Below, one piece after another: positions 6,745 through 30,324 of a stretch of 30,324 bases of DNA. This DNA is from Mesotaenium endlicherianum (taxonomy: Eukaryota). The notes beneath the pieces were generated by a model that was not told the origin of the DNA, did not search any database, and saw only the letters and a program-made list of their open reading frames with translations. The stretch's first letter is position 1; each line of letters begins with the position of its first letter. Location of the stretch: NCBI GenBank assembly GCA_009602735.1, contig WELA01002297.1:986126-1016449 (forward strand), read 5' to 3'. Made by a program: the position numbers and the translations under genes.

Positions 6745-6779
<35 letters not shown>

Positions 6780-9700: not shown

Positions 9701-12114
9701 CAGTGAGAGTGTGCGCGTGAGTGTGAGCGGCGTGCGCGTGCCAGCGCGTGCGCGCGTGAATGAGTGCGCGTGTGCGCGTGAATGAGTGCGTGTGTGCGTG
9801 TGCATGCGCGTTTGTATGCGTGCGTGAATGGGTGCGTCTATGTGTGTGCACGCGCGCGCGTGAATGTGTGTGCTCGCGCGCGCGTGTGCGTGTGTGTGCG
9901 TGCATGCGCGCACACGCGTGTGTGTGTGCGAGCAGCGCGCCCGCGCAAGCGAGGCCGGCACCGCCGACTACAATCACAACTACCAAATTTGAGCAACGCT
10001 TCTCCCGTCCAACCCAATCATCTCTCGCCTACTTCAAGCATTTTCTGATACACGCATGGAAACACCAAAACGTTGGCACAACAGCCCAGTTCCACGCGAG
10101 CCAGTGAGCGATCCATGCCCACAGAGACTGACGAGTGCCCCCGCCCGAGCAGCCCCCTCCCTCGCAAACCCTCTCAAGCTCAATGCCCTCAGGTCCTCAC
10201 AAGCGTCCACACTTGTGCCTCGTCACTCCTTCCCTCCCACTCTCCCCCCCTCCCTCAATCTCTCCCTCCCTCCCTCCTCCCCCNNNNNNNNNNNNNNNNN
10301 NNNNNNNNNNNNNNNNNNNNNNNNNNNNNNNNNNNNNNNNNNNNNNNNNNNNNNNNNNNNNNNNNNNNNNNNNNNNNNNNNNNNNNNNNNNNNNNNNNNN
10401 NNNNNNNNNNNNNNNNNNNNNNNNNNNNNNNNNNNNNNNNNNNNNNNNNNNNNNNNNNNNNNNNNNNNNNNNNNNNNNNNNNNNNNNNNNNNNNNNNNNN
10501 NNNNNNNNNNNNNNNNNNNNNNNNNNNNNNNNNNNNNNNNNNNNNNNNNNNNNNNNNNNNNNNNNNNNNNNNNNNNNNNNNNNNNNNNNNNNNNNNNNNN
10601 NNNNNNNNNNNNNNNNNNNNNNNNNNNNNNNNNNNNNNNNNNNNNNNNNNNNNNNNNNNNNNNNNNNNNNNNNNNNNNNNNNNNNNNNNNNNNNNNNNNN
10701 NNNNNNNNNNNNNNNNNNNNNNNNNNNNNNNNNNNNNNNNNNNNNNCCCCCCCCCCCTGAGCGCCAGCCCTGCTCTTTACTGCAGTCCATCCCCACGCAT
10801 TCGGAGATGAGAGGGAACGAGCACGTGGAGGTGATGGGAGAGCCGCAGAGATGCGGAGGAGGCATGTTGCTTTAGGAGGATCACAAGGAGGAGGAGGATG
10901 GGCTGGCTATGGGCACGCAGATAGGTGAGAGTCGAAAGGAGGGGGGGGAAGGAGGGAGGGCGAGCACACTTTATTTTTGCAGCGGACGTCTGACAGGCTG
11001 CTGCGGCACTGGCACCCCGCCACCACCCCTGAGCTGGGCCCATTGCTCTCCTCGGCCTGCCAGGTGGCGCATCGCATGCAAGCAGGCGGAAAGTGAGGCT
11101 TCAGTTCCTCCGCCAGACGGCCACAGCTGAGACTGGCGACCCATTCAAGCCCAAGCCCAGGAGTTCCCTCAGGACGGTACGACCTCCCGGAGAAAGCTGA
11201 GCTGGCGAAGTCGCTCCTGCGCCAGACAGGACGGGACAGGACGGGACAGGACGGGACAGAATGGGACAGGACGGTAACAGCAAGAACGGCGTGGCACCCT
11301 CTCCCGCAGGAGTGTGAGACGCCGTCCCCCGCCCCAGCACCAGCAGCAGCTACTGCTGCCCCGCGGCCGCCATTGCTCCGTGTCTCCGTGCCTTCTCATA
11401 CGCTAGTCCGCATGCATGCATGCACGGCATCCACCAGGCCGAAGAGGACTCCTCTGACAGAGGGAGATCAATAGAGGAGGCCTTGAGAGTACACACACAC
11501 GCACACACACAAGCGCACGTGCGCACACACACGCACACACACAAGCGCACGTGCGCACACACACGCACACACACACACACAGACACACTGGCGCTAGCAC
11601 CGAACAGGCCCCCTCTCTGCAAGGAGGCTCTCCTCTGCCTGCTTCCAGCGACGCCGAGGGTGGCTCCGCCGGCCTCTCCATCGATAGCCGTCTGTTACCC
11701 CGCTAAATAGGCCAAAGCCCTCCCCTCGAATATGGCCCCTTTCATGCTGGAGTTGACGTTGAGTGAACCTTGAAAGCACCGGCAGAGGGTTTGAGGGTGA
11801 GGCGAGACAACGCCCAGTCAGGACCAATCCCCCAAGTGACTGCCAGCACAGCAGGGAGCTGAGGAAGCTATCTGTACCTTGTAGTCGTCAAACTCCAGAG
11901 GGGGCGCGTCGACGAGAGGGCCGTCAGATGTCGCCTGGCCGGGTGGCCCTGCCTGAGGAGAGCCCCTAAGAGGAGAGGAAGCCGAGTTGGCCTGTAGCTC
12001 TCGGGCTTTGGAGGCGCGCGTGACCCTGCCAGATGTCGCCCCCTTGCTTGCCTTGCCCCCTCCCCCCCTCCCCTGCCTGCCACTATTGGTCCCTCCACTC
12101 TTCCCCTGACCCCC

Positions 12115-12145
<31 letters not shown>

Positions 12146-13550
12146 CTCGAGTCCCCCGACGCATTCTCGATTGAGAGCTGCGGCTGCGAGGGGTCATAAG
12201 AACGAATTCCAAGTTGGACCAGTCAGCACTTCTGCCAGCATGGCACATCCCCCTTCCCTGCTCATGCCAGCTGTCCCACGCAGCAGATCGATGGAAGCCA
12301 CATGTGGCAGTACAGGTGTGGCGCAAGAGCGAAAGTGCTTGTGCACTCGTGAAGCCTCCAGGCAGCAGGCCCCATCCCGTTCCAGCAGGGGGTGGAACAG
12401 CTGGCCCCCAAAACCGCTTGTTGCAAAATAATACAGGCAAACTGCTGCCATTGCCAATGCCTTTGATATTTCTTCTTGGGTGGGGGGGGGGGNNNNNNNN
12501 NNNNNNNNNNNNNNNNNNNNNNGGGGGGGGGGGGGGGACTGGTGATGAAGGGGTGGTTGAGAGGAGAAGCGGCTTGGGACCAGCCCCTTGCACATTATTT
12601 TGCAACCCCCGCACCGCTGTCTTGTGGATCAGTGATAGCTCTCTGCAAGTTTTCTACCTAGTTCTTGTAATAGCACAAGAGGGATTCTCCAGATTGAACC
12701 CCCACGAGCACAGCAGGTGTGATGTGGAAAGAGTCTGTGCCTTTGACCTTCCTATGGTGTTGGTGGATGGGGCGGGTTTGGTTCTTAGTATCTAGGGAAT
12801 ACATTCTTCCCAGGGTCCTACACGGCAAACAAAGCGTATAGCTGACTAAGTGGCTAATGTCGAGGGAGGCTCGAGATTGCACTGACCTTCAGATTTCGAA
12901 GCTCATCCTCCCCTTCGATGGAGAAGACTTTCCTTTTCCTTGGGTTTGGCATTATAGAGAACTCTCCCCCGGCCTGCACAGTATGTCTTCGTCGCGTGAT
13001 TAGGCCCCTGAAGAAACCAAGCGGATATCGTGACCTTCTGGCAGCAGGAAAGCCCAAACAACCCTTTGTTTATTATGCTTTTTGCCCTCTATATACTTGA
13101 TCGACCTTCTCCCGTCAGGTGCTACAACTCACTTGCAATAAAAGTACCTCCATATAACTTCTTTTTTTCCAGTTGGCACGATTTCATAGAAGGGCTAAAA
13201 CAGGTGTAGCCATAGGCTTGGCAGAAACTTGGGGATGTTACCCTCATCCAGATAATGCCGACGCGCATTTGGATACGCAGGGTCCCAAAACTTACGTCGT
13301 CGTCTGAGTCGGAGTATAAGTCCCCCCCTGCCACAATAACCTCTCTCGCACCAGGGCTCGTGGACTGCCTATGCTTCAGGTTCTGAGTAGCACCAATACC
13401 TCCTGTGGCACCTCTGATGTCCGAAACAGAAGGAGGTGAGATACCTGCCATCCTGGCTTCCAGCTTCGCAAGCTTCTCCGGAAGGTTTGGGTTAGAAGTA
13501 TTCGAGTTTGTTGACATTTGAAGGAGAATGTCTCCTCCATCCTCAAACAT
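1349..13550 (-). CDS. TLK: Tousled-like serine/threonine kinase, spliced multi-exon gene (whole span; exons listed separately)
   Basis: N-terminal [11 protein letters not shown] and SDSDDD motifs, coiled-coil LKVISDLL...EVWEDGQ...[10 protein letters not shown], and kinase motifs [42 protein letters not shown]. These match plant TOUSLED as I recall it. Splice phases are mutually consistent from 8035 down to the stop. Confidence 0.95.
2110..2271 (-). CDS. TLK: TLK exon ([30 protein letters not shown]...SSEAK)
   Basis: 162 nt phase 0/0; subdomains IX-X. Confidence 0.95.
2951..3005 (-). CDS. TLK: TLK exon ([18 protein letters not shown]), absent from the ORF track
   Basis: GGCAG|G acceptor completes the Trp codon; AAG|GTGAGC donor; 55 nt. 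Confidence 0.95.
3840..4113 (-). CDS. TLK: TLK exon (GKDLD...[12 protein letters not shown]...DFGLSK...[11 protein letters not shown])
   Basis: 274 nt phase 1/2; catalytic loop and DFG. Confidence 0.95.
4739..4949 (-). CDS. TLK: TLK exon (AFDL...VACKLH...[10 protein letters not shown]...FCTVLEYCD)
   Basis: 211 nt phase 0/1; catalytic Lys and helix-C Glu. Confidence 0.95.
5260..5439 (-). CDS. TLK: TLK exon ([13 protein letters not shown]...[18 protein letters not shown]), kinase subdomain I
   Basis: 180 nt phase 0/0; glycine-rich loop. Confidence 0.95.
6309..6442 (-). CDS. TLK: TLK exon (DKGGERE...[13 protein letters not shown])
   Basis: Phase 1 acceptor GAGCAG; CGG|GTGAGT donor; E.YK.RL..LKR motif. 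Confidence 0.85.
6609..6647. repeat. (GGCTGACA)n octamer tandem repeat, ~5 units
   Basis: Direct reading. Confidence 0.9.
6743..6836 (-). CDS. TLK: TLK exon ([21 protein letters not shown]10-P), probable GC donor
   Basis: GAGCAG acceptor; conserved [17 protein letters not shown] donor in phase 1. Confidence 0.8.
6985..7078. repeat. ~47-bp tandem duplication in intron
   Basis: CACGCGCACGACGTGGACCAATACACAC...GCACGCGCCCGCA occurs twice. Confidence 0.85.
7302..7368 (-). CDS. TLK: TLK exon ([22 protein letters not shown])
   Basis: WEDG motif; phase 2 acceptor matches upstream exon; CTG|GTGCCC donor. Confidence 0.9.
8035..8169 (-). CDS. TLK: TLK exon, 5' boundary at or in the gap (…[40 protein letters not shown])
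   Basis: Conserved TSL coiled-coil motif; donor CG|GTGCGC, phase 2. Confidence 0.85.
9634..9687 (-). CDS. TLK: TLK exon ([18 protein letters not shown], coiled-coil-like)
   Basis: TGCAG acceptor, CAG|GTGCCC donor, 54 nt phase 0/0. Confidence 0.6.
9710..9930. repeat. Intronic compound (GT)/(GC)/(GCGT) microsatellite
   Basis: Alternating purine-pyrimidine tract; similar tracts at ~1482-1508, 3122-3172, 5595-5717 and 11490-11588. Confidence 0.9.
10970..11056 (-). CDS. TLK: Candidate TLK exon ([29 protein letters not shown])
   Basis: GGCAG acceptor, AAA|GTGTGC donor followed by the C-rich intron start typical of this gene; 87 nt phase 0/0; no homology recognised. Confidence 0.35.
11225..11274. 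repeat. (GACAGGACGG)n 10-mer tandem repeat, ~5 units
   Basis: Direct reading. Confidence 0.85.
11878..12183 (-). CDS. TLK: Probable TLK exon ([15 protein letters not shown]9-GGQGKSGG...GRQGRGGG...EFDDYK)
   Basis: CGCAG acceptor, AAG|GTACAG donor, 306 nt open in phase 0/0; polyQ and GR-rich low complexity as in TSL N-termini. Confidence 0.6.
12887..12973 (-). CDS. TLK: TLK exon 2 ([29 protein letters not shown]; basic NLS-like RKRK)
   Basis: TGTGCAG acceptor, AAG|GTCAGT donor, 87 nt, phase 0/0; resembles the TSL segment after SDSDD. Confidence 0.75.
13296..13550 (-). CDS. TLK: TLK exon 1 ([13 protein letters not shown]...[14 protein letters not shown]...SDSDDD)
   Basis: ATG at 13550; 255 nt; donor GTAAGT, phase 0; plant TSL N-terminal motif. 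Confidence 0.85.
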
Positions 13551-15449
13551 TTTGGGGAGGCTGGAGGCAAAGACAGAGAATGGGGTCACTTTATCTATTC
13601 ACAGGAATTAAAAACCCTACTCGGCGACACTAGCTTCCGGCATATTCCAAGTTTGCTCGGCAACGGAAGTCATGAAGTGAATGGTGAATTGTGCTCAGAG
13701 ATGAACAGTCGCGAGATTATGCAACTGCACCAATATTGACATGGGCGCGACAGGTGTAAACTAAAATTGTGGCTATGGCTTGGCATCTCCGTCTACAAAT
13801 CGAGCATGGTGTCTTGAACGCTCATGTAGTAAGTAGTCCGAGCCAGTCCGAGCTATCCTCGAGCATACTTTGAAGCAGCCCTTGTGCAAAGCTCTTGCTA
13901 TCGACTTCGACAAAAACGCGGGATAATTGCGGAGGTCACAATTTGGCGGGGAAGGGACTAGTGCTCTCCTGTGTTCAGACGCCAACCCAAGAAGTGCATT
14001 CAATTGTTTGAATCAAATAGGTCACGATTGAACCGTATCGTTGACATAGACGAACCGACGCTCGCTTAAGCGTGTGAACATGACACTTCTCCGGGGTGAC
14101 TAGTTTGTTGAATGTTCAGGCACGGGACCACTCACTCGCAAAGATGACCATTCATATGACTCTCTTATCTTGGCGCTGAAGGGGACCTTTGGGGGTGATC
14201 AATCCTCGCATTCGCGACCCGATGTACTTCCTACCGAGGTTACAATAATCACGCTGTGGTCTTGAGCAGCGTGCCCGACTGCCACGCACGTCACCTCCGC
14301 TTAACAGCAAAGTCCCCGCATCATGCCCTCTTACCAAGGGTTACTAAGCAGTGTCGCACCCAGCATTTCAGGCACCCCCTAACGGCAATTCTCTTCATCT
14401 AATCAACCTCTTTCTCATCGCCGTCACTCAATCCATTCTATACATGACTGGTAACGAATACAAGCAAATGAACGTGCAGATACGCGTAATTGGGGTCCTA
14501 GCTGACGAGCTCGTTGGTCTCCCTAATGAGAGTTTATTGGGGCCCAATGCTTCTCGCTTAAAGTTGCGAAGTCGTTGGAATATCGGTCACCTTGGCATCA
14601 CAACTTGGCAAGTCTCTGTAAGGTAACGACTTGGGAATGACTGGTAGGATTTCTGGTACAGCTTCATGTGGTTTTGCAAATAGTTGCTAGTAGTCATATC
14701 ATTTGCTATGATCTCGTGTGAAAGCCAACAAAATAATTGACTATAAACGGCTAAATCTTGTATAGAGGTTGCGTAGTACACAGGTGCCTAAGTGGTTGTT
14801 GGTCACCGGGGAAGTATGAATACTTACCAGTATCGGTGCAGGACTGAATGTGTAAGTATGAGTAAAAACTAGCAGATTCGCTGAGCTCAAGTTTGCGCTT
14901 GGCCAAGGGTTGGTACTAGCCAACAATGGTTTTGGCCAAAACCCGGCTTGGTATGATCTGGGCCATTAGAGTGAATTCGAACCTTCACGTAACTTCGGCT
15001 GACGCGGACTTTCGACCAGGTGAAATTAATTAGAAGTTTGGATTAGCCTAGCGCGCCTAAGCTAGAATATTCCAAAAATGTCGATGCATGTATGTGGACG
15101 TCAAATTGACCCGACACGTCAGATCAGCCTGATCTGGCATACTCACGAATATTCAAGAAGGGGCCATTTGACAAACACTTGGAGATTTTGTTGCTAAGCG
15201 GCCCTCCCTCTTAGGGGCGAGCGATCGTCGTAGAAAACTATAAATGGGCATAACTTCTTCGTGATTTATCAGGTTTCACTTCTGTAAATTTCTACGGGTT
15301 TGTAATGACAAGACCTTCATCCTATTCCTTTTGTGAGCACTTTCTTTGAATCAAAATGCTCAGTAATTTTCTAAGGCTTTCTTAGTGATATGTCGCTGCA
15401 CTCTAGAGTATGATTGCAACTATTTTGGTTCCTCTTGAGTTACTACGCT

Positions 15450-15830
15450 TCTACTAGGGCACTCTGCCCCTTTCACCACCCTTGGGGGCTGAAACTCGGC
15501 AGACAGGGCCGGCAAGAGGGTTGCTAGAGAAGCAGCCAGAGGGATGCCAGCTTCATTTTCCCTCTGGGGGCATGTGCCCTTATCCTATGTCATGCAGCAT
15601 CCTTTTGGCAACCCTAAACTTGTTCTTGTCAGTATGCGGAATACACAGGAATGAGCAGGTTCCATTAACTTGCAAACTGTGCAAGAGGAAGCTGCCGAGT
15701 TGCTGTGTTCTCCTATGGGCCCACCTTGGGCTGGGGTTGAAGAGTTCAGAAGGCCACCTGAGAGGTGGACATGATCCAGGTGTAGGTCTGGTTCCCAGAA
15801 GATAGGGCCCCGGGGACCTAGCTTGCATCA
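15450..15830 (+). pseudogene. Decayed, diverged 3' part of the retrotransposon extra ORF (element A)
   Basis: Frame starting GCC at 15535 reads ARGMPASFSLWGHVPLSYVMQHPFGNP...INLQTVQEEAAELLCSPMGP...FRRP. It aligns with 23671 onward and has in-frame TGA stops. Confidence 0.8.
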
Positions 15831-15910
15831 GGAGATCAACAATCTGCAGTGTTGCATGCTCTTGTCAGCTTGTTAGGATTGTGATTTTGTTTTATTAAGA
15901 TGAGTGCTTT

Positions 15911-17139
15911 TGAAATGAATCTTGCTTATTCAAGATAAATATATAAGATCAGAGATAGGTGGAAGCGTGTAAAATCAGGGAGCGATCTTCGCCCTTAGAT
16001 TCCGTTTACTCATCTATACCCCTTGACTCACCGTAGTGTGCCATACTTGCACACTAACACAAGGTACAAGAAAGAGGCAAGCTTGGGGACTAGAGCTTCT
16101 CCATTAAACACTCATGACCTCTTGCCTACCAGGGCATACCAGCATGTATAAGCACATACACAACACCAGGGGACTGAATAGCAAAGGCGCTTTCATTCAG
16201 ATGACCATAAAGACATCCCACTGACTTAGGTGCAAAACCATGGAGTCTATTCATTAAATGACCCCAAAATATCAGAGGGCATAACTCTGTCAATACTACT
16301 TCAAATTCAACAAACTTAACGACGCAAAGGACGCATCTTGACGAGACCTGTCCGAAAAGTCCTAGTTCGCTCATTTGGAGCACAGACAAAGACGCCATGT
16401 CAATTTCCGTGAAAGCTGGTCATAATAACGAACCCAAAAGTGTACACATGACTTGCAAGTAGAAAATTTGACTCTAAAGCCTACTGTCCAGAATGAGGGA
16501 CCACAAGGTCCCAGCCTGCTATGTACCTAGTGACCACCTGGTTGACCACGACACAAGGTGCGCCGTTTCGTGAGAAACCCGTTAAGTTGGGACCCACAGA
16601 TCTAGGTATAACGACCTTATTAATTGGTCGGTTGACTGAAGTCCTAACTGTTCAGTTGACTGACGACGGCTCCGCCTACCCAAGAGTTAACCACATTGGT
16701 AGGAGATCGGTTTACCGAATCTCAGTAGACCTCCCGACTTTCAGTATACTACGGTCACATGTGCCAATCTAAGACTAATAATCCAAATGAATATATCTAT
16801 TCTCAGCGTACTGAAGCTAAGTATACTAACTAATATCAAGCGAGCTTACTATATGTCAACCTACTGATATTATATCCTATATATTACTGATATATGAATC
16901 TCAGCAAACTATACTATGATACAAAAGTCATCCTGCTGACCTTTTCAACAAAGTCAGCAAACTACACTATGATACAAAAGTCATTCTGCTAACCTTTTTG
17001 ACAAAGTAATTAAACTCGCATTATATCGACACATTCATTTAGATGAACTGGCACTTGTGAGTATATTGACATACTACTTATTTAGTGTTGTATTTATACA
17101 TTTACTTAATTAAATAAAATATTGAATTGATTTATTACA
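15911..17139 (-). mobile_element. Solo LTR (1229 bp) of a related, diverged family (LTR G)
   Basis: Ends TGAAATGAATC (15911) and GATTTATTACA (17139) match the family terminal inverted repeats. Flanks GCTTT/GCTGT form a 4-of-5 TSD. It shares a core motif (16664-16723) with the 720-bp LTRs. Confidence 0.7.
16901..17006. repeat. 2 x 53-bp tandem repeat inside LTR G
   Basis: TCAGCAAACTAYACTATGATACAAAAGTCATYCTGCTRACCTTTT..ACAAAG at 16901 and 16954. Confidence 0.9.
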
Positions 17140-17177
17140 GCTGTTGTCGAAGCGACAACAATGTAAGTCGGAGGAAT

Positions 17178-17886
17178 TGTAATAAATCAATATTATTGAT
17201 AATATAATATTCATTTAAATATAAAAGCTAATAGATTGAGTTTGCTGAACTTAGCTTTTATCAGGTCCGTTGGTCTTCAATTTTATTCACTTTTATGACT
17301 TAGCTGAAAGCAGCAGGTTGAAGTCTAACATTGGTCAGGTTGATGACACATTCTTTGACAGTCAGCTGACTGCCGAACTTGGTATCAGTGTATTGTCTAG
17401 TTATGCATTTAAGTGTGATATGCTAGATGAGTGGCTAGATGACACCCTTGGGTGAATGGCCAATGATGGGAGATGGCTGTGGATTTGGTTAGCCGAGGTC
17501 CTACCAACGTGGTTAACTCCCAGGTAGGGGGTGCCATCGCACTTGCCGTTGAACAATAAACTCATTCCATGTACATAGGTTAGGTTATGCCCTCGAGTTT
17601 GGCATTCAAATACGAGGCCAACTCTCTTGTACAGCTTACTGAGAGAACATCTAAATCCAAGGCTGCAAGTCGTTACACGAATTGTTTACTATCCTTACTT
17701 ATGTGTGAGTTTATTGATTATATGATGGATGCTTGTTATTTGCATTTCATTAATGAGTGTTACCTAAGCTAGTTGTGCGATTTTTGCTGATTAATAAGTT
17801 AATCAGAAGATACCATAAAAATTACTTGCTGACATGAAGATCTTCAATTTATTCTTAATCGCCTATTGGTAAGTCGATTCATTTCA
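17178..17886 (+). mobile_element. 3' LTR of old element A (709 bp)
   Basis: TGTAATAAATC...GATTCATTTCA; preceded by hairpin 17142-17160 and degenerate PPT AAGTCGGAGGAA; colinear with LTR 24048-24767. Confidence 0.9.
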
Positions 17887-19083
17887 ACGTAGTCTTACGA
17901 CCACCTCTTCCAAAGCCTCCTCGAGAGTACCCACCTCACCCTCTAGACTGCCAAGTATTGTACTCATACCCAAAAGACTCTTGCTCATCCAACTATCATC
18001 CTTAGCCTGGTCTCCTTCAATCGCATTGTAGGAACCATGTAGCTTTTTGACAATCTTAGCCACCAAAGCACTACTCTAGCGCTGGTAGTTGAATAGCTGC
18101 TAATCCCAAGCATCAATATCTCGGATCAATGGTCAGTCTATTTTTCATACTTCTTTTCAACAAAATGACTTCACACCTCAGACTTCAAGCCAAACCTGAA
18201 GTATGCTATCTTATAGAGCTCTGGCAACGCGGGCTGCTTCATTATGTTCTCCTAAAATTTTTGAGCATACTCAGCAACTGAAGTGGTTTGCTTCAGTGTG
18301 AGGGAGATCATTGCATAGATAGCTTTCTCTTACTGATTAATCACATCAAACTTTTCATGTAATTGCTCAATGAACCCTTCTCACGAAAGGTCACCGAGGT
18401 GGTTAGCCTTACGCTCTCCTTTATGGAAGAGCCACCAGTCTGCTGCGTTGCCTTTCAGCAAAGCACCGGTGTGCCTTAATTTTTAGTGAAATCTTGCATG
18501 TCTGGATATTTCTCCAGCCACTGCTCAACATTACCAAAAACCTTTATCAGGTAATACTATTTGTTTCCCTCAGGGTCATAGTCCTGAGGTGGCTTTGGTT
18601 TTGGCCTATTAGGCCCTCTGCCACCATCAGTAGAGTGAAAATTCAGTTGGCCTTTTCACGTATTATTGCCATCATAATCCTCTTGTTGGGGCTGATACAT
18701 CACAGTCATCTGAGATTGTATTTGAACAAACAATGCACTCAAATCGACATTCTGAAGTGGCAATGCAGACATAGCAGCAACAGCAACATTGACTCGCTCG
18801 GCAGCAACTTCAACATTTCCTCTTGCTGTTGTATTAGCAATTCCCCCTTTGCTTTAGCTAGACGCTCAATTTCTATTCTGATGCGCTCTTCTTCAGCCTG
18901 CTGGTTTGTAATTGCAGCAATGGCTGCCGTCTCTTCTGCATCTTCTCTATTTGCTGTATCGGCTAAAGCTTTTGAATAAGTGCGAGACCCAAATACATGA
19001 CTCTCGGCTTGTCCTTCAATGTTATCATCATCCCCACCCTCAATATTTCAAGAGTTGCTAGTTTGAGATCGCGTCCTTACCAT
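17887..19083 (-). pseudogene. gag: Decayed gag of element B, truncated by LTR A before the zinc knuckle
   Basis: ATGGTAAGGACG start at 19083; colinear with gag 24802-~26143; several stops and frameshifts. Confidence 0.9.
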
Positions 19084-19104
19084 ATGAAGAAAACTGTGAT
19101 AAGA

Positions 19105-19116
19105 GCTCCGATACCA
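19105..19116 (-). promoter_or_regulatory. Primer-binding site (tRNA-iMet type) of element B
   Basis: TGGTATCGGAGC one base from the LTR CA end. Confidence 0.9.
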
Positions 19117-19117
19117 C

Positions 19118-19717
19118 TGAAGTGAATCGACTTACCAATAAGCGATTAAATTATTAATAAAGATTTTTATATCAGCAAGTAATCTCTATGGTGTTTTTTG
19201 GTTAACTTATTAATCAGCAAAAGACTCCACAACTAGCATCCGTAATACTCACAAGTCAAATGCAATTAAACTAGCATCAATCATGCAATCAGTAAACTCC
19301 TACATAAGCAAGATAAGAAGCAGTTTGGGTAACGGCGTCACAGCCTTAGCTTCAGTCAATCTCTTGGTAAACGAAACTAAGTGTTGGCATCATTTTTGAA
19401 TGTTGAACTTGAGGGCATAACATAACCCATGTACATAGAATGAGTTTTACTGTTCAATGGTCAGTGCCAAAGCACCCCCTACTTGGGAGCTAACCACGTC
19501 GGTAGGATTTCAGCTAACTAAATCCACAGCCATCTCCCATCATCCCAAATCGCCATCCACCCAAGGGTGTCATCTGGCCACCCATCTAGCATATCACACT
19601 TAGATGCATAACTAGGCAATCCACTGATACCGAGTACGGCAGTCAACTGACTGTTAAAGAATGTGTCAGCAACCTGATCTGCAATAGACTTCAACCTGCT
19701 GCTCTCGGCTGAGTCAT
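19118..19717 (-). mobile_element. 5' LTR of element B, lacking its first 120 nt (interrupted by LTR C)
   Basis: Homologous to the reference LTR; abuts the PBS; ends at GAGTCAT|TGAAATG. Confidence 0.9.
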
Positions 19718-20299
19718 TGAAATGAATCGACTTACCAAATAGGCGATTAGCAATTAATGAAGATCTTCATGTCAACAAGTAATCTTTATGGTATTTTCTG
19801 TTAATTAATTAGACAGCAAAAGACAACACACTAGCAGTGGACAGTACTCGCAAGTCAAATGCAAGTAAACAAGCATCAGTAATGCAATCAGTAAACTCAT
19901 ACATAAGCAAGGCTAGAAGACAGTGCATATCAATGGCTTTTCGCCTTCGATTCCGATGTCTCTCCGTAAGCTGTACAAGAGAGTTGGCCTTGTTTTCGAA
20001 TGCCGAACTCGAGAGCAATACCTAGCATATGTACACGAAATGAGTTTACTGTTCAACGGCCAGTGCGATGGCACCGCCTACCCGGGAGATAACCACGTTG
20101 GTAGGACCTCGGTTAACCAAATCCACCGCCATCTCCCATCATCCCGATTCGCCATCCATCCTAAGGATGTCATCTGGCCATTCATCGAGCACACCACACT
20201 TAGACTCATATCTAGGCAGTTCGCTGCTACCAAGTACGGAAGTCAGCTGGCTGTCAAAGAATGTGTCAGCAAGCTGATATAAGTTGACTTCAGCCTGCT
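19718..20299 (-). mobile_element. LTR C, lacking its first 137 nt (interrupted by LTR D)
   Basis: Precise U5 end at 19718; ends at CAGCCTGCT|TGAAATG. Confidence 0.9.
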
Positions 20300-21017
20300 T
20301 GAAATGAATCGACTTACCAAATAGGCGATTAAGAATTAATAAAGATCTTTATATCAGCAAGTAATCTTTATGGTATTTCCGCTAACTGGTTTTCAGCAAA
20401 GGACAATACACTAGCAGTGAATAATACTCGTAAGTCAAATGCGAGTAAACTAGCATCAATAATGCAAATCAGTAAACTCATACATAAGCAAGGTTAGAAG
20501 ACAGTGCGTATCAATGGCTTCTCGCCTTGGATTCAGATCTCTCTCAGTAAGCTGTACAAGAGAGTTGGCCTCGTTTCCGAATGCCGAACTCGAGAGCAAT
20601 GCCTAGCATATGTACATGGAATGAGTTTACTGTTCAACGGTCAGTGCGATGGCACCGCCTACCCGGGAGTTAACCACGTTGGTAGGACCTCGGTTAACCA
20701 AATCCACCGCCATCTCCCATCATCCCGAATAGCCATCCATCATAGGGATGTCATCTGGCCATTCATCTAGCATATCGCACTTAGATGCATATCAAGGCAG
20801 TTCGCTGCTACCGAGTACGGAAGTCAGCTGGCTGTCAAAGAATGGGTCAGCAAGCTGACTTATATGGACTTCAGCCTGCTGCTTCCGGCTGAGTCATTAT
20901 ACTGATAATTATGTAAAGTCCAGCAGACTGACTATTAACTAAAACTCAGCAGGCTGATCTTAATTAACTATTATATTTAAATGAATATTATATCTACTAA
21001 TATACTGATTCATTACA
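20300..21017 (-). mobile_element. Complete 3' LTR D (718 bp)
   Basis: Both termini intact; PPT at 21018-21032 (TTAAGTTGGAGGGAT on minus strand). Confidence 0.95.
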
Positions 21018-21130
21018 ATCCCTCCAACTTAACTGGTTGTCGCCTCGACAACATTAAACTGCCAAAGCCTTAAATAAAGCGACTGACCCTGACCAGCCTC
21101 CCCTACTGACTGTCTTCTCAGCCTGTCACC

Positions 21131-22002
21131 TTAAGGGGTTGTTCCTGGGGCTTCAGGATCAGGAGACGGAGATCTGGACCTAGATCTGGACAGCCCTCTA
21201 GGTCTGTCAGCTGGCCTTCTAAAGAACCCTGTTTGCTCTAAAGTTGGGCCTCGAGGAGAACGAAGGATGGTAGCCTGTTCTTCAACCACTTGGGTGTTGA
21301 TCCCCACATAGACAGGCATTCCAGTAGGATGCTGAAATACATTGGCTAGAGGTACATGCCCCTGAGCGGAGGGGGAGGCCGGCATACCTCTGGCCCACCC
21401 GCGTGTCCCTCTTCTGGCACCCCTGTCCTCTGGGATTTCTGCCTGTGTCTGCTGCCCAGTACAGTCAGTTCAGCTTCTTCCCCTGCTTGGGCAGGTGGGC
21501 TGGGGGAGCGAGCGCGGGGTCCAGTTGTCGCCATAACGGGGATCACATTCCAAATANTTGATCGTGGTTCCTTAGGAGGCGCCCCTCCCTGCCCCTGGGT
21601 GTCCTGAGTACCTGCTGCTGAAGCTTCTCCTCTGCCTTGTTCTTCTTCCTCATCCTCCTCATCCTCCTCCTCGGAGAGAGTAGGGGTCTCGTCCACTAAG
21701 TCGTCCTGCTCCCTAGTAGACATGGAGTAGTCTACCGACCTCCCTTTCTTAGGGCGCGCTGGAGGTTGCTTGGCCTTGAGCCTACTGATATCTATCCGGC
21801 CTGCATTCTTTGCCCATTTGACAAAGGCATGCTTGCCCTTAGAGAAGTAGTCTCTTCCCCTCCTCCTATGCTCCTTGGTCTCTGCATTCATATTGCTCAG
21901 GCATCCATTCAGCCTGGGGTCCCAAGGGGCAATGTGAGGTGGTAGGATGAGATAGCCGTCTAGGCCATAGTGGAAGTCATCCGGTTGGGCTCGGTCACAC
22001 TC
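21131..22002 (-). pseudogene. 5'-truncated, frameshifted copy of the extra ORF (element D)
   Basis: Near-identical to 23062-23934; one C missing in CAGAAATCCC(C)AGAG; cut by LTR F at 22003. Confidence 0.9.
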
Positions 22003-22636
22003 TGAAATGAATCGCCTTACCAAATAGGCGATTAACAATTTATAAAGATCTTTATATCAGCAAGTAATCTTTATGGTACTTTCCGTTAACTGTTTAAACG
22101 GCAAAAGAACAACGCACTAGCAGTGAATAATACTCGTCAGCCAAATGAGAGTAAACTAGCATCAATAATGCAAATCAGTAAACTCATACATAAGCAAGGT
22201 TAGAAGACAGTGCGTATCAATGGCTTCTCGCCTTGGATTCAGATCTCTCTCAGTAAGCTGTACAAGAGAGTTGGCCTCGTTTCCGAATGCCGAACTCGAG
22301 AGCAATGCCTAGCATATGTACATGGAATGAGTTTACTGTTCAACGGTCAGTGCGATGGCACCGCCTACCCGGGAGTTAACCACGTTGGTAGGACCTCGGT
22401 TAACCAAATCCACCGCCATCTCCCATCATCCCGAATAGCCATCCATCATAGGGATGTCATCTGGCTATTCATCTAGCATATCGCACTTAGATGCATATCA
22501 AGGCAGTTCGCTGCTAACGAGTACGGAAGTCAGCTTGCTGTCAAAGAATGTGTCAGCCAGCTGACTTATATGGACTTTCAGCCTGCTGCTATCGAGTACG
22601 GAAGTCAGCTTGCTGTCAATATATTGATTCATTACA
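22003..22636 (-). mobile_element. LTR F: both termini present, internal deletion plus ~30-bp duplication, no TSD
   Basis: TGAAATGAATC at 22003, GATTCATTACA ending 22636; 22591-22619 repeats ~22516-22544; flanks CACTC vs AGACA. Confidence 0.9.
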
Positions 22637-22728
22637 AGACAACACTGCTATAGAAGGAAGGAGCTACAGCACTGGACAGGTACATCGAGACACACACCGG
22701 CGTGGTCCTTTACAAAGATTATGCTAAG

Positions 22729-23934
22729 ATGGTGGGCTATACAGCAGAGCAGGCCCGGTATCTCGCAGATGATTCAGAGGACAAGCCGGTCCCCATACCG
22801 GGAATAGTGGGAGATCAGAGACTCATCCGGATGGTGAGCATGCGGCCCGATAGCTTTAAGGATACGGTATTCTACCTCACACTCCTGCCAGCTTACAATG
22901 AAGTTGAGAGAAGGAGCTGGGAGTACTTGGCCAGGGAAGCAGGACAGCAGATGTTCTCTCCCCACTGGTTCCCGTGTAAACTGAGGAAGGCTGAGCACGG
23001 ACCCCAGTACTACCAGCAGCCAACAGACTGGAGGTGGATGACCGTCACAAATAAGAAGCAGGAGTGTGACCGAGCCCAACCGGATGACTTCCACTATGGC
23101 CTAGACGGCTATCTCATCCTACCACCTCACATTGCCCCTTGGGACCCCAGGCTGAATGGATGCCTGAGCAATATGAATGCAGAGACCAAGGAACATAGGA
23201 GGAGGGGAAGAGAGTACTTCTCTAAGGGAAAGCATGCCTTTGTCAAATGGGCAAAGAATGCAGGCCGGATAGATATCAGTAGGCTGAAGGCCAAGCAACC
23301 TCCAGCGCGCCCTAAGAAAGGGAGGTCGGTAGACTACTCCATGTCTACTAGGGAGCAGGACGACTTAGTGGACGAGACCCCTACTCTCTCCGAGGAGGAG
23401 GATGAGGAGGATGAGGAAGAAGAACAAGGCAGAGGAGAAGCATCAGCAGCAGGTACTCAGGATACCCAGGGACAGGCAGGGGCGCTTCCTAAAGAACCAC
23501 GATCAGGTGTTTGGAATGTGATCCCCGTTATGGCGACAACTGGACCCCGCGCTCGCTCCCCCAGCCCACCTGCCCAAGCAGGGGAAGAAGCTGATCTGAC
23601 TGTACTGGGCAGCAGACACAGACAGAAATCCCCAGAGGACAGGGGTGCCAGAAGAGGGACACGCGGGTGGGCCAGAGGTATGCCAGCCTCCCCCTCCGCT
23701 CAGGGGCATGTACCTCTAGCCAATGTATTTCAGCATCCTACTGGAATGCCTGTCTATGTGGGAATCAACACCCAAGTGGTTGAAGAGCAGGCCACCATCC
23801 TCCGTTCTCCTCGAGGGCCAACTTTAGAGCAAACAGGGTTCTTTAGAAGGCCAGCTGACAGACCTAGAGGGCTGTCCAGATCTAGGTCCAGATCTCCGTC
23901 TCCTGATCCTGAAGCCCCAGGAACAACCCCTTAA
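22729..23934 (+). CDS. Retrotransposon extra ORF of unknown function (~401 aa from first ATG; possibly 5'-truncated by LTR F)
   Basis: Long open frame ending 113 nt before the LTR; aromatic-rich N-half, basic patch, poly-Glu tract, RS-rich tail; two more copies in the window. Confidence 0.75.
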   Translation: MVGYTAEQARYLADDSEDKPVPIPGIVGDQRLIRMVSMRPDSFKDTVFYLTLLPAYNEVERRSWEYLAREAGQQMFSPHWFPCKLRKAEHGPQYYQQPTDWRWMTVTNKKQECDRAQPDDFHYGLDGYLILPPHIAPWDPRLNGCLSNMNAETKEHRRRGREYFSKGKHAFVKWAKNAGRIDISRLKAKQPPARPKKGRSVDYSMSTREQDDLVDETPTLSEEEDEEDEEEEQGRGEASAAGTQDTQGQAGALPKEPRSGVWNVIPVMATTGPRARSPSPPAQAGEEADLTVLGSRHRQKSPEDRGARRGTRGWARGMPASPSAQGHVPLANVFQHPTGMPVYVGINTQVVEEQATILRSPRGPTLEQTGFFRRPADRPRGLSRSRSRSPSPDPEAPGTTP

Positions 23935-24011
23935 GGTGACACGCTGAAGAGGCAGTCAGTAAGGGAGGCTGGTCAGGTTCAGTTCCCTTATTTAAAATTT
24001 CTGCAGTTTAA

Positions 24012-24047
24012 TGTTGTCGAGGCGACAACAAGTTAAGTTGGAGGGAT
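24012..24047 (+). promoter_or_regulatory. 8-bp hairpin plus polypurine tract
   Basis: TGTTGTCG-AGG-CGACAACA, then TTAAGTTGGAGGGAT directly before the LTR TG. Confidence 0.85.
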
Positions 24048-24767
24048 TGTAATGAATCAGTATATTAGTGGATATAATATTCATTTAAATATAATAGTTA
24101 ATTAAGTTCAGCCTGCTGAACTTTAGTTAATAGTCAGTCTGCTGGACTTTACATAATTATCAGTTTAATGACTCAGCCGAAAGCAGCAGGCTGAAGTCAA
24201 CTTAAGTCAGCTTGCTGACACATTCTTTGACAGCCAGCTGACTTCCGTGCTCGGTAGCAGCGAACTGCCTTGATATGCATCTAAGTACCACCTGCTAGAT
24301 GAATGGCCAGATGACATCCCCATGATGGATGGCTATTCGGGATGATGGGAGATGGCGGTGGATTTGGTTAACCGAGGTCCTACCAACGTGGTTAACTCCC
24401 GGGTAGGCGGTGCCATCGCACTGACCGTTGAACAGTAAACTCATTCCATGTACATATGCTAGGCATTGCTCTCGAGTTCGGCATTCGGAAACGAGGCCAA
24501 CTCTCTTGTACAGCTTACTGAGAGAGATCTGAATCCAAGGCGAGAAGCCATTGATACGCACTGTCTTCTAACCTTGCTTATGTATGAGTTTACTGATTTG
24601 CATTATTGATGCTAGTTTACTCGCATTTGACTTACGAGTATTATTCACTGCTAGTGTGTTGTCCTTTGCCGTTTAACCAGTTAACGGAAAATACCATAAA
24701 GATTACTTGCTGATATAAAGATCTTTATTAATTGTTAATCGCCTATTTGGTAAGTCGATTCATTTCA
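24048..24767 (+). mobile_element. LTR E (720 bp), preceded by a PPT and followed by a PBS
   Basis: TGTAATGAATC...GATTCATTTCA, 10/11 terminal inverted repeat. Confidence 0.95.
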
Positions 24768-24768
24768 G

Positions 24769-24780
24769 TGGTATCGGAGC
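24769..24780 (+). promoter_or_regulatory. Primer-binding site, tRNA-iMet type
   Basis: TGGTATCGGAGC vs the usual plant TGGTATCAGAGC. Confidence 0.9.
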
Positions 24781-24801
24781 AGTTATCACAGTCTTCTTTG
24801 T

Positions 24802-26280
24802 ATGGTAAGGACAAGGTCTCAAACTAGCAACTCCCGAGACATGGAGAACCAGGATAACGAGAATGTCGAAAACCAGGCGGAAAGCCATGTAGCGGGAAAC
24901 CGTACCTATTCGGAAGCAGTAGCGGATACTGCAGCTAGGGAGGCTGCAGATGAGGCAGCTGCTATTGCCTCAGTCGCAGCTCAGCAAGCTGAGGAGGAGA
25001 TAGCCAGACTAGAAGCTGAACAAGTAGCAAAGGCCGCTGAAGATATACAAAGGAGGGAAGGACAGCCAGCTGACGAGCGCACTGTTGAAGAACTTATGGC
25101 ATCAAGGGCCAATGTTCTGAACCCACCTCCTGCCGTACAACTCAATGTACCCCTAGGTCAAATACGTGACCGGCTGAATGCGGCAGGAATTGCTGCTGCA
25201 GGAGCAAGAGGGATTGTTGAGGACACTACTCAGCGAGTAGATGCCAATGCTGCTGCTGCATTTGCTAATCTACCACCCCAAAATGTAGACTTGGGAGCAT
25301 TGTTCGTTCAGATGCAGTCGCAAATGGCGACCATGTATCAGTCCCAGCAGGAGGACAAAAGAATCATAATGTCCCTACTCCGGGACAGAGACCAACTGGG
25401 GTCTCACACCACTAGTGGTGGTGGCCGAGGGCCTAGTAAGCCCAAGCCGAAACCTCCCCAGGACTATGATCCTGAGGGAAACAGAAAATATTACCTGATC
25501 AAGTTTCTCGCGGATGTTGAGCAGTGGCTGGAGAACTACCCAGAACTGCAAGATTACGAGAAGGTCAGGCACACCGGTGCGCTACTGAAAGGCAGTGCCG
25601 CAGACTGGTGGCTTTACTGGAAGGAAGAGCGTAAGGCTCGGCAACTCGGTGACCCTACGTGGGTAGAGTTTGTCGAGAAGTTGCATGAGAAGTTTGATGT
25701 CATCAACCAGCAGGAGAAAGCTATCTATGCGATGATCTCCCTGACACTGAAGCAGACCACTTCAGTTGCTGAGTTTGCTCAAAAGTTCCAAGAGAACATG
25801 ATGAAGCAGCCTGATTTGCCAGAACGGTATAGGATAGCATACTTCAGGTATGGCTTGAAATCCGAGGTCTCTGGTCATTTTGCTGAGAAAAAGTATGAGA
25901 AACTGGCTGACTTGATCCAGGATGCTGACGCCTGGGATCAGCAGCAGTTCAATCACAAGCGCCAGAGTAACGCTTTGGTGTCTAAGATTGTCAAAAAGCC
26001 CCACGGTTCCTACAATGCAGTTGAAGGAGACCAGGCTGAGGATAATCAGGGTGATGAATATGAGTATGAGTACAATGCTATTCAGTCTAGAGGTAGAGGT
26101 GGTCCCTCTCGAGGTGGCTATGGAAGGGGTGGTGGTAGGACTAAGCCGAGACCAGCCTCAGCAAAATCTACTTGCTACCATTGTCAGCAGAAAGGCCACT
26201 ACAGAGAACAGTGTCCGGTCAAGCACCTGCCTAAGGTCGAGAGAAAAGACCAGCCTTTAAAAGACAGCAACAGTCAGTAA
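24802..26280 (+). CDS. gag: Ty3/Gypsy Gag
   Basis: LKGSAADWW...TWVEF...[10 protein letters not shown] capsid-type motifs, RGG tract, CCHC knuckle [14 protein letters not shown]. Confidence 0.95.
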
Positions 26281-26297
26281 TCCAGTCTACTGACTGT
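26256..26297 (+). promoter_or_regulatory. -1 programmed ribosomal frameshift signal
   Basis: U_UUA_AAA (26256-26262) in the gag frame, 7-nt spacer, perfect 10-bp stem ACAGTCAGTA/TACTGACTGT; pol frame is -1 and open from 26235. Confidence 0.8.
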
Positions 26298-26348
26298 GAG
26301 GATGCTAGAGATAGTGAGTCGTCACTAGCTGCCCTCGTAGCAGGTATT

Positions 26349-29300
26349 ATGGGTCCTGCTGAACTGGATTCACTATGCATGCCTGACAAACAGATAAAGG
26401 AGACCATCAGTAATATAGACGTCCAGAGAGTGCACACTCTGGATGCTCTTGTTCCACCTGATGTCCAACATTTCTTTGCTACGTCAGGAGAACAATGCGA
26501 AAGTCAGGAAAAGACAGTCCCCCCTATCCTACTGCATTGCATGATTGCAGGTAGGAAGGTGAGGGCATTTGTTGACGGAGGGGCGTCACATACTTTTATT
26601 CACAAGGACTTAGTTAAGCGGCTAAGGCTGCCTACTGTCACCCAAGGGAATAGAAAAATATTCCTTGGAGATGCCTCAAGTATCCCGGGAGGAGTTATAA
26701 CCAAGCCTATTGAGGTCCAGTTAGGTTCTGGCATTGCAGTTCTAACTGAAACGCTTACATTTGAGGTACTCAACACTGGCTTTTATGATCTCGTGCTAGG
26801 CAGGTCCTGGCTTAATAGACATCAAGCTGAAGTGTGTTGGAGCAGAGGTACAGTTAAAGTGAGAGGAGCCAGTGATGGGCAGACTGACTTGGCACCCACC
26901 AGTGCTCTTCCTCTTGTCCTGTGTGGATGGCAAATGAAGGAAAAGAAGAGGCTTCCAGAAGGATGCAAGTTGCTGAATGCAATGGAGTTCGTCAAAAGCT
27001 GGAACCAGAAGGAAGACAGAATGTTCTGTCTGCTGCTAAGAGAGGTACCTCCTCAACCTGAAGAAGTGGTTGAGAAAAAGGTAAGCCCTCCGGAGCACCC
27101 TACTGCTGCAAAAATTGTTGCTCAGTACACTGATGTGTTTAACATGCCTCCAGGACTACCCCCTAAAAGGGAAGTAGATCATAGGATTGATCTATTACCT
27201 GGTAGCCAGCCACCCTGGCAACGCACTTATGGCTTGTCTTATTTGGAGAGCGAGGAGTTGAAAACACAGATTGCAGAGCTGGAGGAAAATGGTTACATTT
27301 CTCCCAGTAAATCACCGTACGGCGCACCTATCCTATTTGTTAAGAAAAAGGATGGCAGTATGCGGATGTGTGTGGATTACAGAGCCCTGAACAGAATTAC
27401 AGTAAAGAACAAGTATGCTTTACCCAGAATCGAGGACTTGCTTGATACCCTGTCTGGCGCTAAGGTGTTCAGTAAGATAGATCTCAAGAGTGGTTATCAT
27501 CAAATCAGAATTGCTGAGGGGGATGAACACAAGACTGCTTTCCGCACACGTTATGGACACTATGAGTTCAACGTGATGCCATTTGGACTGACTAATGCTC
27601 CTGCTACCTTTATGGGTGCTATGAATGACATTTTCAGACCTTATTTGGATAAGTTTGTGCAAGTTTTCCTGGATGATATTTTAATTTTCTCTAAAGATGA
27701 AGCTCAGCACACTGAACACTTAAAGAAAGTGCTGGACACTCTGCGGAAAAATCACTTGTATGCTAAAATGAGCAAGTGTGATTTCTTTAAGGAAAGTATT
27801 GAATTCTTAGGCCACGTTGTCAGTAAAGAGGGCATCAGTGTGGATCCTAAGAAAGTCCAGACCATAAGGGACTGGCCAGTACCACAGTCTGTCTCTGAAG
27901 TTAGATCCTTCCTCGGGTTGGCTAACTACTATAGGAGATTTATTGAGAATTATTCCACAAAGGCCAGTAAACTGACTGACCTTACTAAGAAAGACATCGG
28001 GTATGTGTGGGGGGAAGAGCAGCAGGCTGCCTTCCAGACCCTTAAAGATGCCCTTTGTTCTGCCCCAGTGCTAGCCGTGTATGACCCCAGCAAACCGGTG
28101 CAGGTGGTTACTGATGCCTCTGATTTTGCCATGGGTGCTATTTTGTTGCAGCCTGCTGACAAAACCACAAAGGATGGTAAGGTACGGCAGGAGTGGCATC
28201 CTGTGTTGTATGAGTCTATGAAATTTAATCCAGCGGAGATTAATTACTCAGTGCATGATAAAGAGCTGCTAGCTATCATTCATGTACTCAAACAGTGGAG
28301 AGCATACTTACATGGTAAAGCTTTTAAGGTGATTACAGATCATCTAGCTCTGACCCACTTTCAGAAGAAGTCCAAGCTGTCGAGGAGGGAGAACCGCTGG
28401 AGCCAGATGCTGGAGCAGTTCCAAGTCCAGATCGACTACAAACCAGGGAAGTTGAATCCTGCTGATGCACTCTCTAGAAGACCTGACTTGCAAGAAAGGA
28501 ACTTTAGTCAGCATACTGTAGATAAAGTCCTGTGTGCACTCACTTCACTAAAGGTGAAAAAGTCCTTCCTTGAACAACTTAGGAAAGCCTACCTTTCTGA
28601 CCCAACATTTGAGCCCAGCCCCACTACTGGTGTGTGTCGTGCTACTGCACTCGGGTATAAGCTCAAGGGAGGGGTCTGGGTGACTGAAACCACTTCAGGC
28701 AGGCTGAAGCTGGTCATTCCTAATAATTTGGAAATAAGGTCTCTCTTACTGAGTCAAGCTCATGACAGTCTCCTGGGTGGACATTTGGGGCAGGCCAAAA
28801 CTGTTGGCAAACTGGCAAAACATTATCATTGGGAGGGGTTACCCCGGGAGGTCTTGAAATATGTCAAGTCCTGTGACCAGTGTCAGAGAAATAAGTCTCG
28901 GCACACACCACCCGGAGGTCTCTTGCAACCGCTACCCATCCCAGCGGGACGCTGGGAAACTATATCCATGGACTGGGTGGTCTCACTATCAAGAACTGCC
29001 AACGGGCATGATTCAATACTGGTAGTCGTGGATAAACTGACAAAAATGGTCATTTTTATCCCCACAACTGTCAAAGTGACTGCACTCGAAACAGCGAGAC
29101 AGTTTTACAACCATGTAGTATGCCAACATGGGCTCCCTTCTAATATCATCTCAGACAGAGACTCAAAATTCACCTCTAAGTTCTGGAGAGCTTTAATGGG
29201 GTTAATGGGAGTCAAACAGCTGCTCAGCACAGCAAACCACCCTCAGACTGATGGGCAGACTGAAAGAACTAACCGAGTTCTGCAGGAGGTGCTGAGAGCA

Positions 29301-30065
29301 TATATTAACCAAAAACAAGATAATTGGGATGACCTGTTGCCTCAAATTCAGTTTGCGGTCAACAGTGCGGTGCACGCGTCAACGGGCAAAACTCCTTTTG
29401 AACTCAGCCTGGGTAGAGTCCCTAAGTCTCCTCTAGATGTGCTAGGGGAATCTTTAACTCACCCTGAAGGGATTGACAACCCGGTCTCCCTCCAGTTAAC
29501 TCAGGAGTTTGCTGACACCCTGTCAGAAGTCCAACGAAACTTGCACACGGCCCAAGAAAACCAACAAAAATACGCTAATCAACACCGTCGGGAACTGACA
29601 TTTTCCAAGGGGGATTTAGTCAAACTGCATTCTCAGCACCTGTACCTCCCTGGTGTGGTCAAGAAAAAGCTTGGCCCTGTCTGGGTCGGTCCATATTCGG
29701 TGGTCCGTCGTGTCGGTCAGAATGCTTACAAACTGAACATGTCAGCTGAATACAAGGGGCACCCGGTCTTTAATGTCTCCTTCCTGGAACCGTACATCAA
29801 AGGTGATACACTGTTCACAGGTCGGTTCCCTGTCCAACCGGGACCGGTCCCCGCTGTCCGGGACGGCGACCCTGAGGAATATGAGGTCGATGAGATTTTA
29901 GACGCTCGCTCGGTCCGTCGATCGTCTAAATATGTCATGAAATACCTCATTCGATGGAAGGGTTACGATGCCTCTGGGGACACTTGGGAGTTTAAGGACC
30001 ACTTGACCAATGCCAAAGGGGCGTTGACACGGTTCCACCTTCGGGCCGCTGGAGTCCCTCCATAA
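26349..30065 (+). CDS. pol: Ty3/Gypsy chromovirus Pol (PR-RT-RH-INT-chromodomain); frame open from 26235, probably made as Gag-Pol
   Basis: FVDGGAS protease, [26 protein letters not shown] RNase H, HHCC + DDE + GPY integrase, EEYEVDEIL...YLIRWKGY...TWE chromodomain. Confidence 0.97.
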
Positions 30066-30324
30066 CTGTCATTTCAGTTGACACGGGAAGGTGACAGGCG
30101 GTCCTGTCTCCATTTAAGTTGGAGGGGAAAATATATGACAGTTAGTGAGCGAGAGCGATAAAAACACACTCATACGTTTATGTGTAGCGCATCGCAACTA
30201 CGTCAACTTTTAACAACCATCCTGTAAGGTAAACAGCAGCGAAGCCGCTATACTAAATACTAACATACTTCCTGCAATCCCTATGACAAAGGTCCATATC
30301 CTACTAACTTGTGCCCTGGTTACA

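Follow-up and report, generated by a model that had tools for sequence, protein, structure and literature searches.

An extra open reading frame under purifying selection beside the 3' LTR of a chromovirus family in Mesotaenium endlicherianum

In work from 2011, Steinbauerova reportedly found the extra open reading frames (ORFs) of chromoviruses only at the 5' side, and in grasses. The REXdb survey (Neumann 2019, PMC6317226) counts 3372 extra ORFs in Ty3 elements, which form 314 unrelated groups and mostly lack known domains. Its Additional file 5 lists extra ORFs in the Tekay chromoviruses at 33, 12, 18 and 8% for the classes 5'F, 5'R, 3'F and 3'R, a column reading that is somewhat doubtful, as the Athila row looks shifted against Additional file 4. 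A previous reading of the present locus, made from its sequence only, had treated such ORFs as rare in chromoviruses; this agrees with the other five clades named in REXdb but not with Tekay, in which 3'-sense ORFs are found in 18% of 782 elements. Additional file 5 holds no extra ORF class for any algal or moss chromovirus clade, with individual exceptions possible (Additional files 1 and 3).

The DNA analysed here (30,324 nucleotides, hereafter the window) comes from Mesotaenium endlicherianum, described in the excerpted literature as a single-celled zygnematophyte, and carries a 401-codon ORF beside an LTR of a chromovirus family. Like the 3'F class of Tekay, this is a chromovirus 3'-sense ORF of at least 250 codons (PMC6317226). 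Tekay, however, occurs in seed plants only and its chromodomain has no aromatic cage, whereas the Mesotaenium element is algal and has the cage, and the ORFs are likened by description, not by sequence. Chlamyvir of algae and Tcn1 of mosses and lycophytes, as far as the accessible parts of their descriptions go, share with the Mesotaenium element a caged chromodomain and a non-seed host, but unlike it have no extra ORF class in REXdb. The same partial descriptions give Tcn1 overlapping gag and pol frames, as here, but mostly self-priming, and give Chlamyvir a tRNA-Met primer binding site (PBS) in part, as here, but gag and pol mostly parted by a stop codon.

Other likenesses come from outside the chromoviruses. 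The env-like 3' ORFs of Athila and SIRE, in the portions of the literature consulted, have the same position, sense orientation and fast divergence, but belong to another lineage, and the Mesotaenium ORF has neither a membrane segment nor a match to PF03078. Maize Grande GENE23 and the ORFs of Retand and Ogre are likewise extra genes in the 3' internal region that are kept in most copies, and GENE23 is reported to be nuclear (excerpts of PMC7264820). These ORFs are antisense, reside in non-chromovirus elements and often carry PMD or Transposase_28, whereas Pfam finds neither domain in the Mesotaenium ORF. VANC of VANDAL elements offers a functional analogy only, as an element-encoded factor against silencing (PMC13547354, in part); it belongs to a DNA transposon, has a MAIN-related fold, is dicot-specific in the part of the source seen, and shares no detected sequence similarity with the Mesotaenium ORF. 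The accessible parts of PMC3350952 and PMC9289625 make no mention of a comparable algal ORF, our literature search found nothing on chromoviruses of Zygnematophyceae, and titles and abstract openings yielded no description of this element. The kind of ORF is one known from seed-plant elements, while its host lineage, chromovirus branch, protein family and paired polypurine tract (PPT) were not found described.

The element type is established by the right-hand part of the window. A 720-bp LTR bounded by TG...CA (24048 to 24767, plus strand) is at once the 3' LTR of the ORF unit and the 5' LTR of a gag-pol unit. One nucleotide after it lies a tRNA-Met type PBS, TGGTATCGGAGC (24769 to 24780, plus strand); a PBS of the TGGTATC type is one that we take to be complementary to tRNA-Met. 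Pfam detects Ty3_capsid, Retrotrans_gag and a zinc knuckle in gag (24802 to 26280, plus strand), and protease, RT, RNase H, integrase, SH3 and chromodomain in pol (26349 to 30065, plus strand, with the frame open from about 26233). The two genes overlap in different frames, and a -1 frameshift heptamer, T TTA AAA, is predicted at 26256 to 26262 (plus strand) to lead from gag into the pol frame. The chromodomain (PF00385, E 2e-8, residues 1178-1230) is at the integrase C-terminus, and inspection by eye finds its Y/W/Y aromatic cage residues intact, a feature restricted to non-seed plants according to the part of the REXdb article consulted (PMC6317226). With the LTR-PBS-gag-pol structure, the PR-RT-RH-INT order and the C-terminal chromodomain all present, the element is a Ty3/gypsy chromovirus, and the previous assignment to the chromoviruses holds.

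The closest full-coverage pol matches have 54% identity. A quick RT-RH tree was made from the window and 50 of the 120 matches (the named ones and P0021-P0059, aligned over at least 380 residues), with REXdb references left out. Window pol falls outside a fully supported seed-plant clade of 11 rows and within no supported clade. The algal host, the cage and the position outside the seed-plant clade set the element apart from Tekay, and a TGGTATC-type PBS one base beyond the LTR sets it apart from the self-priming found in 83% of Tcn1 members. Twenty IMG/VR contigs catalogued as 'viral' (L004-L023) are compact Ty3-type LTR retrotransposons of 5.2-7.1 kb with 31-38% identity; 18 of the 20 have terminal direct repeats, and none of the 20 has an ATG-initiated ORF of 250 codons after pol. 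Comparison of the window integrase with metagenomes gave three short, distant loci.

The extra ORF itself, referred to as copy C (22729 to 23934, plus strand; 401 amino acids in the translated ORF list), has its stop 113 nt before the LTR start TGTAATG at 24048. An 8-bp hairpin (24012-24030) and the 3' PPT (24033-24047) lie between them on the plus strand. Thus, the sense ORF of about 400 amino acids, the hairpin-PPT and all of the protein motifs quoted in the sequence-only reading are present as described. The frame is free of stops for 426 codons (22654-23931), compared with a mean of 130 and a maximum of 320 for the longest stop-free run in 2000 shuffles of 22637-24047. In keeping with the REXdb definition of an extra ORF, it exceeds 250 codons, is separate from the polyprotein and lies outside any tandem repeat; the poly-Glu purine run is the one repeat found over it. 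The N-terminal half is aromatic-rich and basic (14.5% W/Y/F/H, net charge +10), and the C-terminal half is acidic and of low complexity (net charge -8). The protein carries RPKKGR, poly-Glu, a conserved GHVPL..V.QHP.G motif in the C-terminal half and an RS/SP tail. There are two motifs of the RSPSP type besides the RSRSRS of the tail; these are partly kept in copy A, and the RS run is only four dipeptides long.

Native sequence upstream of the ATG (22637 to 22728, plus strand), which includes a stop codon at 22651-22653, is cut by an inserted LTR and appears as a loose end at 22637 in DNA run X8. Because that minus-strand LTR ends at 22636, 92 nt before the ATG, the native 5' context of the ORF is missing and its length of about 400 amino acids is insecure. 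The ATG may be internal to a longer frame. Thirty letters upstream of 22637 in run X8, read by eye, extend the frame with no stop. When an N-terminal extension was weighed, the upstream openness (about 39 codons with one stop) was within chance by our estimate and the ATG context was strong (A at -3, G at +4), so that the start may lie at this ATG or further upstream.

The arrangement had also been said to recur in two further copies, D and A. A pattern scan of the window supports this in that all three PPT-LTR junctions have the ORF or a relic of it upstream, but D is partial and A is a relic that a probable solo LTR parts from its PPT. Of the ORF, copy D (21134 to 22002, minus strand) retains only codons 112-401, interrupted by a 1-nt frameshift and containing one N; its 3' UTR, hairpin-PPT and LTR (20300-21017) occupy 20300 to 21133 on the same strand. 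Between C and D sits an LTR of this element family that carries an internal deletion (22003 to 22636, minus strand). Its insertion breaks C off ahead of the ORF and truncates D at codon 112, and its flanks do not form a target-site duplication, which makes it a rearranged junction. At 17890 to 20299 (minus strand) are two further LTR pieces (19718-20299 and 19118-19727), a PBS and a decayed gag that belongs to an older copy, B.

Copy A (15457 to 15819, plus strand) is a decayed relic of the C-terminal part of the ORF (codons ~284-397), in which 52 of 108 aligned residues are identical to the C protein. Its hairpin-PPT and LTR (17178-17886) lie at 17142 to 17886 (plus strand), and this LTR is 15% diverged from that of C. 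The intervening probable solo LTR (15911 to 17139, minus strand, 1.2 kb), which the previous reading missed, belongs to a related subfamily; it is recognised by its termini and one 77-nt match, and is flanked by GCTTT and GCTGT. Near one of its ends, at 16901-17006, are two tandem 53-nt copies that are 91% alike. The DNA upstream of copy A gives no match to the post-pol region or to the N-terminal half of the ORF.

Comparisons among these copies demonstrate selection on the protein. C and D share 290 codons, which contain 210 synonymous and 660 non-synonymous sites. Besides one N and one 1-nt gap, the two copies are separated by 14 changes that are synonymous and 6 that are not. The resulting dN/dS of 0.137 (binomial p 2e-5; p at most 3e-4 in simulations with three transition fractions) is that of one close pair in the window, joined by one distant pair (C and A), and is not genome-wide. 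Differences between C and D amount to 20 of 865 nt in the ORF, 15 of 113 nt in the 3' UTR and 22 of 718 nt in the LTRs. Between C and A, mismatches by codon position are 43/38/65 over 108 codons, and the older copy A keeps the GHVPL..V.QHP.G motif. The low dN/dS and the codon-position pattern indicate that the protein was selected while the C, D and A lineages replicated. The ORF is a protein-coding gene of the chromovirus family, under purifying selection; a ratio near 1 had been named as the outcome that would count against such a gene, and the value obtained from this pair is far from it. Frameshifts and stops in the copies are best read as decay after selection.

The protein, called unrecognised at the outset, had no match in any protein database searched, including one that holds the predicted proteins of the host. 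A word-indexed protein search returned 7986 candidates of 220-702 aa, none of which reached E 0.001, and phmmer over 1.84 billion representatives with no length limit returned none. There was likewise no match among PDB sequences at E 10, by exact sequence look-up, or to the retrieved pol-family proteins and 23 retrieved loci, and none of the 588 pattern matches in metagenome, 599 in viral and 601 in prokaryote genome contigs was confirmed. Pfam shows no similarity to VANC, PMD, Transposase_28 or Athila ORF1 (PF03078); its candidates DUF6462 (E 0.02-0.12) and HsdM_N (E 0.17) were sub-threshold. The ESM Atlas gave no usable match. Clusters of DNA_pol_A (0.87-0.89, 117-128 of 256 shared features) had a sub-threshold, chance-level recognition value and were rejected. 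Two single-sequence AlphaFold2 models, with pLDDT values of 35 and 33, were of insufficient quality for a fold search, and Rfam gave no matches over 22600-30324.

The sequence-only reading had placed the ORF downstream of pol in a full element. Read depth and the pattern of joints fit this placement, as does the finding that both PBS-bearing LTRs in the window lead into gag, but none of the contigs or reads joins pol to the ORF, and the two never share one pair of LTRs in the window. At least half of the words of the ORF region are contained in 20 of the 24 sequencing runs listed. For DNA runs X1 and X8, the region 22600-30324 was divided into 20 gag-pol bins, five ORF bins, one post-pol bin and two pure LTR bins, with two mixed bins excluded. 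Summed contig depth, which is not a copy number, was compared as a median with that of the gag-pol bins; the ratio was 0.53 (X1) and 0.92 (X8) for the ORF, 0.62 and 1.02 for the post-pol region, and 2.16 and 4.07 in the pure LTR bins. Among the best-supported 15 of 274 joints, the deepest of which reaches 586, none runs from the post-pol PPT (~30127) back to the LTR at 24048, with X1 joints incompletely counted. A direct pol-LTR junction would be expected to give one of the strongest joints. Taken together, depth, joints and the PBS-bearing LTRs make it quite probable that autonomous copies carry the ORF behind pol and ahead of their 3' LTR.

The post-pol region holds a further feature that had been missed. 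A 6-bp stem (30093-30108) and a 13-nt stretch identical to the PPT core (30114-30126), which starts 49 nt after the pol stop, lie within 30093 to 30127 (plus strand), and 195 non-LTR bases follow the PPT copy in the window. One X8 contig runs on past it into sequence resembling another LTR start, which weakly suggests that the copy is an old 3' end of the element. On its sequence, the copy is predicted to be either a central PPT or an ancestral 3' PPT. Central PPTs are known in EVADE, Ty1 and HIV-1 and are linked to nuclear import of cDNA (PMC7197481, in the part consulted). Such a copy may preserve a trace of the way in which 3' modules of this sort are gained. In X1, a short tandem duplication is seen at 30133-30169, and 15 contigs have other sequence behind 30162.

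A subgenomic transcript of the ORF had been proposed as a check on its expression, and both poly(A) RNA runs used (X22 and X23) gave zero ORF reads, in samples where the family looks silent. The 1036 and 1796 million letters read correspond to ~6% and ~12% of these runs, which share a species label with the best-matching DNA run and may differ in strain from the window. Depth was 0 in all five bins of 22600-23889, and none of the RNA runs among the listed runs contained the ORF stretch. Depth rose to 25-35 in the LTR bins; in the pol bins it remained under 10, and most of the reads there were diverged. Reads at least 99% alike numbered 14 of 257 (X22) and 30 of 386 (X23), and with so few near-identical reads the chromovirus family looks silent in both runs. 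Reads over the LTR break off abruptly at its two edges and at 24870, where they run into constant, unrelated sequence, which suggests solo or truncated LTR copies inside host transcripts.

The role of extra ORFs in plant LTR retrotransposons is an open question, and the Mesotaenium ORF is one that is selected and predicted to be soluble. From its motifs and by analogy, we tentatively propose that the product may be a soluble nuclear accessory factor that acts on the DNA or chromatin of its own element. On this view, a high-copy Ty3 chromovirus would carry the ORF behind pol as a selectively kept accessory gene, ahead of the 3' LTR, and the product would raise transcription of the element or shield it from silencing. 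Import into the nucleus would occur through RPKKGR and the RS/SP tail. Given linkage to pol, the chances are evenly balanced that the aromatic, basic N-terminal half binds nucleic acid or chromatin and that the acidic tract is an activation or histone-binding arm. Ribosomes that scan genomic RNA in the ordinary way could not reach a 3' ORF behind the pol stop, so translation would need a subgenomic RNA, either spliced or initiated internally, which might be made under conditions other than those sampled. The second PPT, behind pol, would be a central plus-strand primer, likely marking the old 3' end where the module was added. The product of the Grande extra ORF has been reported in the nucleus, and ORFs of this kind have been proposed to play accessory roles (excerpts of PMC7264820), and VANC is a precedent for anti-silencing (PMC13547354, in part). 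The fullest version of this proposal, in which an undescribed class of nuclear anti-silencing factors or transactivators was gained behind an ancestral PPT, now the central primer, and drove expansion of the family in a unicellular sister lineage of land plants, seems unlikely to hold in its entirety.

Other roles for the protein can be weighed against an action on DNA or chromatin. The main rival, possible but doubtful, has the protein act on RNA or particles, as an SR-like or Rev-like factor for splicing or export of genomic RNA or as an escort of the cDNA complex into the nucleus; both readings rest on motifs and analogy. The two RSPSP-type motifs, the RSRSRS tail partly kept in A, the basic N-terminal half and the central-PPT-like copy after pol, a feature tied to cDNA nuclear import in the part of PMC7197481 consulted, would suit this rival. 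However, Pfam finds no RRM or other RNA-binding family, the RS run is short, and no spliced RNA was seen among the reads of X22 and X23. An env-like or cell-to-cell movement protein is very improbable. Position and orientation do match the env-like ORFs of Athila and SIRE (PMC7264820, in part), and the true N-terminus may be missing, so that a signal peptide could have been lost from view. Yet the 426 residues contain no hydrophobic or membrane segment (highest 19-residue Kyte-Doolittle mean 0.73), in agreement with the earlier opinion that the protein is not env-like. The unicellular host, as described in the sources excerpted, also removes the explanation by movement through plasmodesmata that is offered for seed-plant ORFs.

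The proposed nuclear factor also presupposes that the ORF belongs to the autonomous element. It could instead come from a non-autonomous partner that shares LTR, PBS and PPT and lacks gag-pol, the tandem then being a recombinant of two element types. Such an origin, which would suit the separation of pol and ORF by LTRs throughout the window, the ORF depth of about half that of gag-pol in X1, the PPT copy right after pol and the LTR-like continuation of the X8 contig, is distinctly unlikely. It would lead one to expect a joint from the pol PPT to the LTR among the best-supported 15 of 274, where none is seen; both PBS-bearing LTRs precede gag, the ORF is at all three PPT-LTR junctions, and an X1 LTR depth of about twice that of gag-pol leaves little room for a second abundant class. 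There is very little likelihood that the ORF is a neutral passenger or a recently captured fragment of a host gene, despite the broken copies (the frameshift in D, the stops in A and the stop upstream of the C ATG) and the lack of a transcript in X22 and X23. A dN/dS of ~0.14 and retention of the ORF across copies whose LTRs are 15% apart argue against a passenger. The search for a captured host gene or env-like protein, posed at the outset as a possible refutation, gave no clear match in the host-inclusive protein database, the 1.84 billion representatives or Pfam. Because that database includes the predicted proteins of the host, it is unlikely that a similarly long, annotated host gene was captured recently.

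An intron-rich host gene on the minus strand (1800-13550, starting at 13550) lies in the left half of the window. It has kinase-like exons and introns that are microsatellite-rich and GC-rich; its N-terminus presumably recalls a TOUSLED-like kinase. Exon 1 has 100% identity over 85 residues to Mesen1 ME000147S01100, and four exons of that model match the window at 96-100%. Mesen1 is the JGI portal for M. endlicherianum (PMC12266102, in the part consulted). The public model is a 265-aa N-terminal piece of the gene only, so the annotation was probably split by assembly gaps. The interval 13600-15450, from the host gene start to copy A, gives no match to the chromovirus LTR family and may hold other transposon remnants. 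From ~15.4 kb to the window end, the sequence consists of copies of a single LTR family, nested in one another. Insertions of this family into its own sequence are consistent with self-targeting. The interval 15400-30324, 2-17 kb upstream of the host gene, contains a minimum of seven LTRs or LTR pieces, which differ in age, lie on both strands and are nested in each other. Run X1 contains further LTR starts that interrupt gag, pol and the ORF of the element itself, which matches the nesting in the window.
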